The notes beneath the pieces are model-generated. The model saw nothing but the letters and a program-made list of their open reading frames with translations. It was not told where the DNA came from and made no database searches. A stretch of 3,842 nucleotides of DNA from a virus (taxonomy: Duplodnaviria > Heunggongvirae > Uroviricota > Caudoviricetes): the IMG/VR virus record IMGVR_UViG_2663762948_000004. One strand, written 5' to 3'. A program made the translations under genes and the position numbers. Below, in pieces: positions 1-3,842 of this stretch; position 1 is the stretch's first letter; each line of letters starts with the position of its first letter.

Positions 1-192
1 TCAGGAGCATTTCTGATTAACGCCACCGTTAAGAATCCACCCCTCAACAGCTTCACGAAGGTATGATTTGGGGTGGGTTCTGACTGGCTTCGGAAATCCG
101 TGCCGTTTGGTATAGTTCCAGATTGTCTGACGTGATGAAACACCGAGCTTGTTCATCACTTCTTTCTCAGGAATCAGGCTGGTATCGGTCAT
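1..192 (-). CDS. AlpA/Xis-family DNA-binding protein (prophage excisionase-like regulator), 63 aa
   Basis: Complete ORF: ATG at 192..190, TGA at 3..1. GGAGA Shine-Dalgarno 6 nt upstream (plus 203-207). Translation LIPEKEVMNKLGVSSRQTIWNYTKRHGFPKPV...EAVEGWI fits the AlpA/Xis winged-helix pattern (S-x-x-TI-W/Y ... G-FP-x-P ... W ... EV-x-x-WI) as I recall it from E. coli AlpA. Confidence 0.7.
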   Translation of the reverse strand: MTDTSLIPEKEVMNKLGVSSRQTIWNYTKRHGFPKPVRTHPKSYLREAVEGWILNGGVNQKCS

Positions 193-351
193 CTTAATTC
201 TCCAGGCAAAAATAAACCGCCATATAGCGGCTCTATCAGATATGTACAGGCCTCATCGAGTGTGAGGCGTTAGTCATTGCGTAGCTCGCTGATTATTCTG
301 TAAGTCTCTGGTGCTTTGCTATCTCACGCAGTGCCTGATAGTCAATCTTGC

Positions 352-519
352 TCACTGGTTGCCTCCTTTACGCCACATCGCATTCAGATATTTGTTTTGA
401 TTCACTGATGGAAAAGAATTTCTCTTAAGCAATTCTTCTCTCGATGGCATTGGCTTTACGCGTTGGCGAATAATCATTTCTGCCGGAAGAATGCCGGGAT
501 TGTATGCAAGTCCTCTCAT
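352..519 (-). CDS. hypothetical small protein, 55 aa (below the ORF-track length cutoff)
   Basis: ATG at 519..517 with GAGGA (plus 527-531) 7 nt upstream, starting 17 nt after the stop of the 104-aa gene; TGA at 354..352. Product [55 protein letters not shown]. No family recognised. Confidence 0.3.
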
Positions 520-535
520 GATTAATTCCTCTTTG

Positions 536-850
536 TTAATTTATTCGTATGCCTGCTCTTTCTTCATCGAGTTTTTTTAGCTTGTATCGCATAGCTCTTA
601 CTGAATAAATTGAGCGGCAGGTTGCAATTGCTATTTCTTCTGCGGAGAACTTACCGAAAAGTGATACTTCGGCTCTTGTCCAGCGTCTTCCACGAAGTCG
701 GCTAACAATGTCAGCTCCAATCCTTGTTGCTTTCGCCATTACTGCTTTTTCAGTCCTTTCCAGTTTTTCAGCGATAACTTCAACTGGCATTGTCGCCGCC
801 ACTTCGCGCAAGAAATCGACTTCCCATTTCTCCCATGGAGTCTTTTTCAT
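536..850 (-). CDS. hypothetical protein with two tandem HTH-like repeats (putative DNA-binding), 104 aa
   Basis: ORF-track ORF, ATG at 850..848, 11 nt downstream of the Gam-like gene stop; no strong SD, so possibly translationally coupled. Residues ~5-45 and ~55-95 are an internal duplication (W-x-EV-x-F/L ... E-x-IA ... R-T/S ... V-x-A ... R/K-I/L), resembling GcrA-N or SANT-like helix-turn-helix motifs. Confidence 0.55.
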
Positions 851-861
851 AGTCGATACCG

Positions 862-1344
862 TTATTTGATAAGAAGTGAAGGTTTCCCAACTTTGAGTTG
901 AGCGCCAGGGATATTTATTCCTGCTTTTAGTTGGTGTTTGATTGCCAGTTTGTCGGCTTTAATTATCGTTTCAAACTCAACGTATTCAGGAGGAAGGGCG
1001 CTTGAGTCGATGATTTCTACAGTTTCTGACGGTTTGCGGATTGTTACCTGGTGAATACCTGCTCGAATCTTTTTCTTGCCAACCATTTCAAGCGATGACG
1101 CTATATACGCCATAATGCTGTCAATCTTATTTTGAATTACTGCGGCTCGCTCATTTAGTGACTTTGCCTCTTCCTTGAGGCGTTCAGCATAACCAGATTC
1201 ATTTTTAATAATGGCGAGAAGTTGCTCTATTTTATCGGTAAATTCTCCTTCCATCCCTTCTATTGTGTCAGCAATCATCTCTGGCTCTAAATCTGAATCC
1301 ATCAATTTTGCGTATTCATTGGCAATTTCATACAGTTTGCTCAC
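862..1344 (-). CDS. Mu-Gam-like / siphovirus Gp157-family protein (putative DNA-end-binding host-nuclease inhibitor), about 160 aa
   Basis: The ORF track starts it at TTG 1350, but GGAGG (plus 1351-1355) sits immediately against that codon and 6 nt upstream of GTG at 1344..1342, so GTG is the likelier start (MSKLYEIANEY...). The C-terminal half (GKKKIRAGIHQVTIRKPSETVEI ... FETIIKADKLAIKHQL ... IPGAQLKVGKPSLLI) resembles my recollection of phage Mu Gam; the N-terminal M-x-KLYE-I pattern is typical of Gp157-family proteins. Overlaps the recT 3' end by 17 nt. Confidence 0.55.
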   Translation of the reverse strand: MSKLYEIANEYAKLMDSDLEPEMIADTIEGMEGEFTDKIEQLLAIIKNESGYAERLKEEAKSLNERAAVIQNKIDSIMAYIASSLEMVGKKKIRAGIHQVTIRKPSETVEIIDSSALPPEYVEFETIIKADKLAIKHQLKAGINIPGAQLKVGKPSLLIK

Positions 1345-2239
1345 TGGCAACCTCCAGTTTCGCTTTGCATTCTATGTAAATGGCTTGTACGTTCTGCTGC
1401 AATTTCATTCCAGATGTCAGGCGATATGCTTCTGCAAAATATCGCTTCAAATCATCCATGTTTTCTGCCTGAGCCATTTCATCACAAAGAAGTTGTGCTT
1501 TATCCGTTATTTCCTGCTGGCGTTTCCGTTCATCTTCGCGGATATCTTCCTCTGATTTGTGCGGCATAACTGGTTCAGTCCACACACCTTCTTCTTCGTT
1601 TAGTACGTGAATAGCACTATCAAGACGTGATGCCTTAGGCCAATACTTGCTTGCACGCTTTACGACCGTCTTTCGCGCCATCTCATTCCAGTGATTTACC
1701 CATGGTCCTTTATCGCTGAATGCCGCCTTGCTTGTTTTCCTTACAGCCTCAATTTCAGCCAGACTCATCTCTTCCGTTAGATAATCACCTGCTGGCGTCT
1801 TAACTGTGCAGTAAACGCCAACGATATCACCACGATCACCGAAGGCGTTGTATTTATGGGTTGGTGCTTTATCAAGCCCGTTTGACTCATAGGTATCGTT
1901 AGCATGAACAAGTTTTGCCTGACCCCATGAGATAACACCAGACTCCATTGCAATATGGAGCAATCCCATATAGCTGATATCAAGGCACACCATGCCGTCG
2001 CGAGGAACCAGATAAGCCAGTTTGCTGGCCGGGTTTAAGGTGATGCCGATCGCCGCAACATTGATGATGGCGTTCTGTGCGCTGGTTGGATTTGCCAGTG
2101 CTGTTTTAGCCAGGTAATCGTTTTTCTGGAAATACTGAATTGCAAACTGGCTTTCCTTAGCCCATGTCACCGTCTGTTCAGTCAATGCTCCGCAGAATAA
2201 CTGCTCCTGCTGTTTAACGAATTCAACGATATTGCTCAT
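1328..2239 (-). CDS. recT: RecT-family single-strand annealing protein (phage recombinase), 303 aa
   Basis: Complete ORF; ATG at 2239..2237 with GGAGA 6 nt upstream; ATGA overlap with the upstream 103-aa ORF. Contains the conserved RecT core GPWVNHWNEMARKTVVKRASKYWP (compare Rac RecT GPWVTHWEEMAKKTAIRRLFKYLP, from memory) and the upstream SYMGLLHIAMESG block. Confidence 0.85.
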   Translation of the reverse strand: MSNIVEFVKQQEQLFCGALTEQTVTWAKESQFAIQYFQKNDYLAKTALANPTSAQNAIINVAAIGITLNPASKLAYLVPRDGMVCLDISYMGLLHIAMESGVISWGQAKLVHANDTYESNGLDKAPTHKYNAFGDRGDIVGVYCTVKTPAGDYLTEEMSLAEIEAVRKTSKAAFSDKGPWVNHWNEMARKTVVKRASKYWPKASRLDSAIHVLNEEEGVWTEPVMPHKSEEDIREDERKRQQEITDKAQLLCDEMAQAENMDDLKRYFAEAYRLTSGMKLQQNVQAIYIECKAKLEVASEQTV

Positions 2240-2547
2240 GCAGCTTCTCCAAAAATGTGTCTGCGTTTGAATATTGCGAAGGCATATTCAGCCTTAACTC
2301 TTTCGGTTATTGCATCCCAGAACCATTCAGCGGCTTTTTCCTGATAGTTACAGTCATCATCTTCCAGCCAGTCGATAGCGTCCTTAGTGTGTTCATCTGG
2401 TTTATATGAGCGAAGCATTTCGCTTATTGGGTCGCAACGTTTGCAGAGGCGATCAACTTCACTGTTGATTCGTTCGTAATCTTCATCAGTAAAACTTGCG
2501 ATTATTTGCGATATTTCACGCTTATCATTCAGAGTCAGAATCATCAT
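2236..2547 (-). CDS. hypothetical acidic protein, 103 aa
   Basis: ORF-track ORF with tandem ATG ATG start (2547..2542) and AGGAG 4 and 7 nt upstream; stop overlaps the recT start (ATGA). By my count 24 Asp+Glu against 15 Lys+Arg, with a DWLEDDD acidic patch. No family recognised. Confidence 0.55.
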   Translation of the reverse strand: MMILTLNDKREISQIIASFTDEDYERINSEVDRLCKRCDPISEMLRSYKPDEHTKDAIDWLEDDDCNYQEKAAEWFWDAITERVKAEYAFAIFKRRHIFGEAA

Positions 2548-2632: not shown

Positions 2633-2781
2633 TTCCTGCGATACCACGGAAGGTTGATAGCTGATTTCATCGCTTTATTTGCTTCAAGCCACATTTTTGA
2701 ATCAACAATAAATCGGGCTATTACTGCTTTGTTCTGTGCAGCACGAAGCATCTGGTGATTAATGGCTATTTCATTGCGCAT
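2629..2781 (-). CDS. hypothetical basic small protein, 50 aa
   Basis: ATG at 2781..2779 with GGAG 5 nt upstream; overlaps the 3' end of the 44-aa ORF by 16 nt. Product MRNEIAINHQMLRAAQNKAVIARFIVDSKMWLEANKAMKSAINLPWYRRK. Below the ORF-track cutoff; no family recognised. Confidence 0.3.
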   Translation of the reverse strand: MRNEIAINHQMLRAAQNKAVIARFIVDSKMWLEANKAMKSAINLPWYRRK

Positions 2782-2900
2782 AACGACTCCAGTTGTTTCT
2801 TTGCTGCTCTGATTAATTGTTTAACTCGGCGTGATAATTCAGATTCGTGCGGGTAGAAAGCGGACATGACGCCGCTACCCGCGAGCTGAAAGTGCATCAT
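2766..2900 (-). CDS. hypothetical small protein, 44 aa (internal-start version of the 92-aa track ORF 2766..3044)
   Basis: ATG ATG at 2900..2895 is preceded by a strong AAGGAG (plus 2907-2912) with 6-nt spacing. The 92-aa alternative starts at 3044 with no usable SD and would read through the terminator-like hairpin at 2964-2988. Product MMHFQLAGSGVMSAFYPHESELSRRVKQLIRAAKKQLESLCAMK. Confidence 0.4.
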   Translation of the reverse strand: MMHFQLAGSGVMSAFYPHESELSRRVKQLIRAAKKQLESLCAMK

Positions 2901-2963
2901 GGGTAACTCCTTATATTTGATTGCATAACGAAAACGCCTCGAGTGAAGCGTTATTGGTATGCT

Positions 2964-2988
2964 AAAAAAGGCCCTCACATTGGAGGGC
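2964..2988 (-). terminator. putative Rho-independent terminator on the minus strand
   Basis: Minus-strand reading GCCCTC-caatgt-GAGGGC-c-TTTTTT: a 6-bp stem with 5 G:C pairs (plus 2971-2976 pairing 2983-2988), a 6-nt loop, then a T6 tract (plus 2964-2969). It lies in the 183-bp gap between the 62-aa gene stop and the 44-aa ORF start. Confidence 0.5.
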
Positions 2989-3050
2989 AAAGAAGATTTC
3001 CAATAATCAGAACAAGTCGGCTCCTGTTTAGTTACGAGCGACATTGCTCC

Positions 3051-3620: not shown

Positions 3621-3842
3621 TGAATCGCCACGGATAATCTAGACACTTCCGAGCCGTTGATAATACTGGTTTTCATATTCTGTCGGTGACATCTGTTCGC
3701 TAGAACCATGCCGACGCTTACTGTTATAAAACATTTCGATGTAATCAAAAATATCACTGCGGGCTTCTTCCCGCGTTCCGTAGATCTTTTTCTTTATCCG
3801 TTCACGTTTCAACAACTGGAAAAAACTTTCTGCAACCGCATT
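3621..3842 (-). mobile_element. IS3-family insertion sequence, right-end portion (partial; terminus placed approximately)
   Basis: Contains the transposase 3' end. The terminus is inferred at about plus 3619-3622, where TGTGAATCGCCACGG begins with the 5'-TG typical of IS3-family ends and resembles IS3-group terminal repeats as I recall them. It must lie right of 3580 because the 98-aa gene RBS and start are at 3566-3580. Confidence 0.5.
3639..3842 (-). CDS. IS3-family transposase OrfB (DDE integrase catalytic domain), C-terminal 67 aa; 5' end outside the window
   Basis: Minus-strand frame open to the window edge, TAG at 3641..3639. Translation NAVAESFFQLLKRERIKKKIYGTREEARSDIFDYIEMFYNSKRRHGSSEQMSPTEYENQYYQRLGSV carries the IS3-family signature around the third catalytic acidic residue (N-A-x-x-E-S-F-F with a basic residue 7 positions later) and the F-Y-N-x-x-R-x-H tail. 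Confidence 0.8.
   Translation of the reverse strand, partial: NAVAESFFQLLKRERIKKKIYGTREEARSDIFDYIEMFYNSKRRHGSSEQMSPTEYENQYYQRLGSV

Follow-up and report, generated by a model that had tools for sequence, protein, structure and literature searches.

The locus and its genes

The window, by which we mean the whole 3,842-nt stretch of DNA that was analysed, carries every sizeable ORF on its minus strand. In the direction of transcription, its upstream half holds the end of an IS3-family transposase gene, a 98-aa gene, a 62-aa gene, an ORF that contains cIII and two tiny ORFs, and these are followed by p103, recT, a Gp157-family gene, p104, a DUF2737 gene and an AlpA-type excisionase gene. This is the cIII-to-xis stretch of the early-left operon of a lambda-like phage, and it follows from that layout that the entire recombination-gene region lies inside the window. 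The features, in transcription order, are:

3622..3842, minus strand: end of an IS3-family element (rve_2, 1.3e-12; NF033516), interrupting the operon upstream of the 98-aa gene
2766..3044, minus strand: cIII-containing ORF (Pfam cIII, 1.1e-29, residues 50-86), the upstream border of the recombination slot
2236..2547, minus strand: p103, an acidic 103-aa protein (phrog_3486; pI 4.65)
1328..2239, minus strand: recT, RecT-family single-strand annealing protein, 303 aa, intact and equal in length to that of HK140
862..1344, minus strand: Gp157-family gene, 160 aa, with a GTG start, a GGAGG Shine-Dalgarno sequence within recT and a 17-nt overlap with recT
536..850, minus strand: p104, a basic 104-aa protein (phrog_11492/phrog_323, 'D5-like regulator'), starting 11 nt past the end of the Gp157 gene
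352..519, minus strand: DUF2737 gene (Pfam DUF2737, 9.1e-32), a conserved neighbour downstream of the cassette
1..192, minus strand: AlpA-type excisionase/regulator (phrog_66, 1.9e-8; weak Pfam Phage_AlpA match)

The corresponding places in HK140 and mEpX1 are annotated as cIII, whose true start in the window is probably at 2900; the 48 extra N-terminal codons of the 92-aa ORF at 2766-3044 are probably not translated. At the other border, AlpA is annotated beside int in HK140 and in the ET151 prophage of Escherichia coli, and the ea-gene block between DUF2737 and AlpA occupies ~160 bp in the window (193-351) as against about 2.8 kb in HK140. A promoter scan of the window gave no more sites than shuffled sequence, and the window holds no Chi site, an absence that is uninformative because only 0.07 would be expected by chance.

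The recT product matches Pfam RecT (PF03837) at 2.9e-32 (112.3 bits, cut-off 24), TIGR00616 at 82.4 bits (cut-off 52.65) and phrog_148 at 3.7e-92, and its gene shares 97-99% DNA identity with recT of HK140, mEpX1 and Kapi1. Against the Rac RecT equivalog model NF007351 it scores 101.8 bits, below the cut-off of 296, which points to a RecT subtype that differs from Rac RecT and is not its ortholog. Single-strand annealing activity is predicted here from family membership alone. Sequence searches of the PDB with RecT, p103 and the Gp157 profile gave no significant match.

The second protein of the pair matches Pfam Sipho_Gp157 (PF05565) at 2.2e-36 (125.7 bits, cut-off 28.6, profile positions 1-162), a family matched by 144 of 144 diverse Gp157 relatives, and phrog_253, labelled 'Mu Gam-like end protection' in PHROGs, at 1.5e-52. 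The longest ORF for its gene runs from 862 to 1350 and would give 162 aa from a TTG; we place the gene at 862-1344 because homologs are 160 aa long and because, in the junction sequence, a GGAGG lies 6 nt ahead of the GTG at 1344. An earlier, sequence-only reading of this DNA had described recT as directly followed by an overlapping Gp157-like gene, and its coordinates proved exact save for this 6-nt difference in start codon. The stop of p103 and the start of recT likewise overlap, as ATGA, and with these overlaps the three genes are probably translationally coupled; the Gp157 start codon lying inside the end of recT would mean that RecT and Gp157 are made together.

A module without an exonuclease

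Searches of Pfam, PHROGs and NCBIfam assigned none of the window's ORFs to a nuclease family. The ORFs ahead of recT had been judged too small to encode an exonuclease, and so they are: p103, two of 40-50 aa, cIII, one of 62 aa and one of 98 aa, none with a nuclease match. In other words, the 5'-3' exonuclease adjoining the annealase that defines a classical two-component recombinase is present in neither the window nor its relatives. The cassette p103-RecT-Gp157-p104 is found at 95-99% identity in the viable phages Kapi1, HK140, mEpX1, Gally and Louie. There is no annotated exonuclease in the N-to-int stretch of HK140 and mEpX1, nor in the complete genome of HK140, where the only genes of note in this respect are two HNH genes, RusA and NinB, and the same cassette in the intact, IS-free ET151 prophage is likewise without an annotated exonuclease from N to int. 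A phmmer search covering up to 8 kb on each side, with lambda Exo, the exonuclease VIII of SEN22, the DnaQ-type exonuclease of mEp235, P22-type Abc2 and two RecE-like proteins as queries, returned no exonuclease homolog (lambda-Exo, RecE or DnaQ) and no Abc2 homolog in the RecT-Gp157 loci among 153 loci.

The arrangement is also common and stable. Among 80 IMG/VR loci with a near-identical Gp157, RecT lies directly upstream in 80, p103 is present in 77, p104 in 79 and DUF2737 in 77, and the p103-RecT-Gp157 stretch occurs in 264-302 of 5426 complete E. coli genomes (about 5%), where PGAP names the proteins 'recombinase RecT' and 'siphovirus Gp157 family protein'. The absence of an exonuclease is therefore real and reflects design, not damage; the module is complete as it stands, without a phage exonuclease, and is present in viable phages. 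Of the two-component module proposed at the outset, the pairing of RecT and Gp157 stands, but the conserved unit has four genes, p103-RecT-Gp157-p104.

How does this module compare with those already known? Zheng, Casjens, Davidson, Amundsen and Smith (Genome Res 2025; PMC12315714) surveyed the recombination modules of 325 lambdoid phages and found 84 of 246 lambdoid modules to be without a nuclease. HK140 is named there as having an annealing protein plus 'MuGam' with the nuclease absent, and the Rec module of HK140, mEpX1, Kapi1 and Gally is given as annealing-protein sequence type 4 plus the 'MuGam' type, with no nuclease and no SSB (PMC12315714). The window shares with these four phages the gene order p103, RecT, Gp157, p104, DUF2737 at 95-99% DNA identity; it differs from the HK140 type in its IS3 interruption upstream and its shorter ea-gene block, the module itself showing no difference. 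Because nuclease-less modules of the HK140 type have been published, the module is already known, and the unusualness implied by the sequence-only reading falls away: it is an ordinary module, already described.

In the same survey, a P22 functional type is defined by an anti-RecBCD function and an annealing protein only, and it comprises 46 phages (PMC12315714). The window module belongs to this type of nuclease-less lambdoid Rec module, its anti-RecBCD activity being putative. The likeness to Erf-Abc1-Abc2-Arf of P22 lies in the combination of annealing protein and anti-RecBCD functions, the lack of a phage nuclease and the same early-left position; the proteins, however, are unrelated, P22 having Erf and Abc2 where the window has RecT and Gp157, and p104 being unlike Abc1. 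Abc2 of P22 binds RecC. With lambda Red (gam-bet-exo) and Rac RecET, the module has in common an annealase of the RecT/Beta superfamily in a PL operon, and sister loci carry lambda gam before recT, but the window module is without a 5'-3' exonuclease and has Gp157 in the position of exo.

The flanking genes p103 and p104

The slot before recT that p103 fills is occupied in sister loci by lambda Gam or by a phrog_1050 gam-like gene. We considered p103 as a Gam or GamL homolog and rejected it, the hhalign probability being 3-5%, as against 94.5% between the two Gam types. The gene may correspond to Gam in position, or be a mere linker gene for module exchange. It also flanks an unrelated exonuclease VIII cassette in Salmonella phage SEN22 (locus L163, 1672-3684), where p103, p104 and DUF2737 are kept at >90% identity and the place of RecT and Gp157 is taken by two other genes, one exonuclease VIII-like (273 aa) and one of 189 aa. 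SEN22 is a clean case of the exchange of a module core between conserved flanks.

On the other side, p104 aligns with gp9 of Mu by BLASTP at 5e-5 and has an internal two-fold repeat (window 536-850; locus L005, 5482-5781). The Mu gp9 gene lies directly upstream of Mu gam, and since p104, a gp9 homolog, adjoins Gp157, a pair of gp9-like and Gam-like genes is conserved between Mu and the lambdoid cassette. The label 'Anti-RecBCD protein 1' in phage Gally would make p104 an Abc1 of P22, an identification that we rejected: there is no BLASTP alignment between the two and no tblastn match to P22.

Gp157 and Mu Gam

Mu Gam is a Ku-like DNA-end-binding protein. The sequence-only reading had taken the protein as Gam/Gp157-like and as a protector of ends. 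Membership in the Gp157 family is clear; the link to Gam is remote, the two belonging to separate Pfam families. The window Gp157 protein does not match Pfam Phage_Mu_Gam (PF07352), even at E<=1, and 33 of 144 diverse members of its family do, the best at 5.3e-6. Of ten members inspected singly, two match over their full length and collinearly, at 19.5 bits against a cut-off of 28.3. With a profile of 144 Gp157 sequences set against a shallow Mu Gam profile, hhalign gives a probability of 11%; reciprocal HMM searches give collinear alignments both ways.

Predicted structures add to this picture. In the AlphaFold (AF2) model of Gp157 (pLDDT 80), a short helix leads to one of 67 residues, after which come three strands, helices and one or two further strands, the C-terminal domain being small, basic and beta-rich, and the conserved residues of the family fall in the long helix and the small basic domain. 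Mu Gam, modelled independently (pLDDT 70), shows an equal order of elements, so that in both models a long N-terminal helix is followed by beta-beta-beta-alpha-alpha-beta, and the register that hhalign found from sequence pairs every C-terminal secondary-structure element of one model with its counterpart in the other. The proteins are similar in size, and in both the N-terminal helical half is acidic and the C-terminal half basic (pI of the halves 4.3/9.85 for the window Gp157, family medians 4.7/8.8, and 6.3/8.3 for Mu Gam). Together with the gp9-like neighbour, the weak collinear sequence similarity and the matching models make it likely that the two are distantly homologous or at least share an architecture. 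They do not establish Gp157 as a member of the Mu Gam family, and its end-binding function is presumed.

Might Gp157 itself be a hidden nuclease? We rejected this candidate: the protein matches no nuclease family and has no recognisable nuclease motif. In a Foldseek search of BFVD, the Gp157 model aligns with part of actinophage PD-(D/E)XK or RecB-like exonucleases, the best such match being in Tsukamurella phage TIN4 (probability 1.0, TM 0.43) and two others having probabilities of 0.10-0.30; the three stand at ranks 11, 31 and 35 of that search. These matches may reflect the long helix only, or a Gp157-like domain fused to nucleases. A 'phage resistance' function was likewise set aside, as that label traces to a non-coding origin element beside orf157 in Sfi21. 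Our literature search found no experiments on Gp157-family proteins.

The neighbours of Gp157 across phages

Clustered at 50% identity, the relatives of Gp157 fall into about 7000 groups; they are present in 593 phage records, and the annealase beside them varies. Gp157 adjoins RecT in Enterobacteriaceae, Erf in Pantoea phage PdC23, and Sak4 with SSB in Listeria and Staphylococcus phages and in many Clostridia; 17 of 96 downstream neighbours of Gp157 relatives are AAA_24, the Sak4 context. A survey of annealing proteins in Firmicutes reported that Mu-gam-like and orf157-like genes adjoin erf and sak4, with functions that are probably analogous (PMC8093625). Modules of the Gp157-Sak4-SSB and Gp157/Erf kinds in Firmicutes and other phages (Sfi21 orf157; PMC8093625) resemble that of the window in that Gp157 adjoins the annealase and that they are usually free of exonuclease; they differ in that Gp157 lies ahead of the annealase, as the first gene of a replication module, whereas in the window it comes after RecT in a lambdoid PL operon.

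In 16 RecT-Gp157 loci from other enterobacterial species, the gene before recT is lambda Gam (PF06064) in four, phrog_1050 gam-like in five, p103 in five, and unassigned or unseen in two, and phage Dewey has the order gam-like, RecT, Gp157, p104. Given that Gp157 so often coexists with a genuine lambda-Gam-type inhibitor, its role may exceed the blockade of RecBCD.

Two further kinds of locus came to light. Distant homologs of Gp157 (about 35% identity) directly follow a phrog_2489 'exonuclease' of 513-737 aa in Proteus, Escherichia whittamii and Citrobacter murliniae prophages (loci L108-L111, L113, L114, L117 at about 6000-8000, and L158). The likeness of the phrog_2489 protein to RecE is confined to RecE's middle part. 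The protein lacks any Pfam nuclease domain, has no adjoining RecT and may correspond to the 'RecE-2' of Zheng et al. 2025. Contigs of 2-5 kb (L093, L097, L102) in assemblies labelled Actinomycetes MAG, Micromonospora and Streptomyces carry a RecT-Gp157 pair of enterobacterial type; the Gp157 in them shares 70-73% identity with the window protein, and assembly contamination is the most likely source.

Proposed role and alternatives

The explanation that we favour, with reasonable though not strong confidence, is that this is an HK140-type module in which RecT anneals, a Gam-like Gp157 shields DNA ends and the host supplies single-stranded DNA. After induction or infection, transcription from PL would give p103, RecT and Gp157 together. 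Gp157, probably a coiled-coil dimer, would bind duplex DNA ends through its basic C-terminal domain, by analogy with Mu Gam, and in doing so could protect linear phage DNA from RecBCD and other exonucleases, such that the substrates of rolling-circle replication and packaging survive. The single strands for RecT would come from the host, through resection of the RecQ/RecJ type or from gaps at replication forks, and annealing by RecT would support recombination-dependent replication and genome circularisation. The proposed logic equals that of the Erf/Abc system of P22, which is likewise nuclease-free. Gene content and the absence of a nuclease are matters of direct observation, and to these our proposal adds presumed end binding, a presumed host nuclease and a presumed coupling to RecT. 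Against it count the missing Phage_Mu_Gam match of the window Gp157, the scores of its relatives below the cut-off and the low hhalign probability, as well as the lambda-Gam-type RecBCD inhibitor that precedes recT in 9 of the 16 other enterobacterial loci and in Dewey; in such loci, with one inhibitor already there, a second RecBCD blocker is seemingly redundant.

Whether the module is expressed in this particular prophage is a separate question. The IS insertion noted in the sequence-only reading is genuine: the C-terminus of an IS3-family transposase occupies 3639-3815 (the final 58 codons), and similarity to phages ends at about 3621. Past that position relatives have ral, N and immunity genes, and ET151 has small genes, an N remnant and a repressor. 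With the IS3 element between the promoter-proximal genes and the module, PL-driven expression may be impaired here. It is conceivable, if somewhat unlikely, that the cassette is the silent cargo of a defective prophage in which the IS cuts off PL and N, a reading that is compatible with our favoured explanation of the module type. The element ends at 3622, on the side from which transcription comes; a terminator-like hairpin of phage sequence (3598-3619, minus strand) sits right beside the junction; and the exact phage/IS junction is present in 0 of 5426 complete E. coli genomes, the IS copy as such being common across E. coli. Given that absence, the DNA may derive from a different strain or from an IS-rich genome of the Shigella kind. 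However, every ORF is intact and 97-99% identical to its counterpart in active phages, and the transposase gene and the operon share the same orientation, so that read-through from the IS is possible.

What if Gp157 does something other than hold off nucleases? It could be a dedicated partner of the annealase that replaces the exonuclease, an anti-nuclease role not being its main one; for example, it could act as a loader that places RecT, Erf or Sak4 on replication intermediates or DNA ends, or it could bring in a helicase or nuclease of the host. We consider this unlikely, yet several observations speak for it. Gp157 takes the position of exo (Gam-RecT-Gp157 as compared with lambda gam-bet-exo), is probably translationally coupled to recT, co-occurs with the lambda-Gam-type inhibitors enumerated above, is linked to three unrelated annealase families (PMC8093625) and is only weakly similar to Mu Gam. 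On the other hand, the contact between RecT and Gp157 that such a role implies is putative; the collinear similarity and the secondary-structure order shared with Mu Gam fit a role in end binding; and distant Gp157 homologs occur without an adjoining annealase. Moreover, HK639 is reported to carry both the GamL and the MuGam type (PMC12315714), so their co-occurrence is evidently tolerated. The anti-RecBCD role of the partner protein is assigned in the literature by its similarity to Mu Gam. Broader still, and in our estimate quite unlikely, is the idea that the Gp157 family as a whole is a widespread annealase partner standing in for the exonuclease, for example by passing DNA ends, or DNA resected by the host, on to RecT, Erf or Sak4. 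Such a partner role would explain the exo position, the co-occurrence with Gam in most RecT-Gp157 loci outside E. coli, and the three annealase families.

Lastly, it is scarcely credible that an exonuclease was once present and has been lost or lies beyond the IS, leaving a damaged remnant, for although the operon is truncated at about 3622 and the DUF2737-AlpA ea-gene region is shorter than that of HK140, IS-free relatives and complete viable phages share the genes without an exonuclease, neither recT nor Gp157 is truncated, no exonuclease homolog turned up in the RecT-Gp157 loci among the 153 loci, and the cIII-xis interval, home of lambdoid recombination genes, is wholly inside the window. 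The earlier suggestion of an exonuclease beyond the IS is not supported, in view of this last point and of the ral, N and immunity genes that relatives have there.

Outlook

As a discovery, the cassette itself carries little weight: it is routinely annotated, and its nuclease-less design is in the 2025 survey. The interest lies in Gp157, a very large annealase-linked family labelled 'Mu Gam-like' or even 'resistance protein'. Should the partner role prove true, the acidic p103, which alternates with Gam genes before recT, could be a new RecBCD inhibitor. If Gp157 boosts RecT or protects linear DNA, it would be a possible additive for recombineering. It might also trigger defences that detect proteins bound to DNA ends, Gabija among them (PMC12407980).
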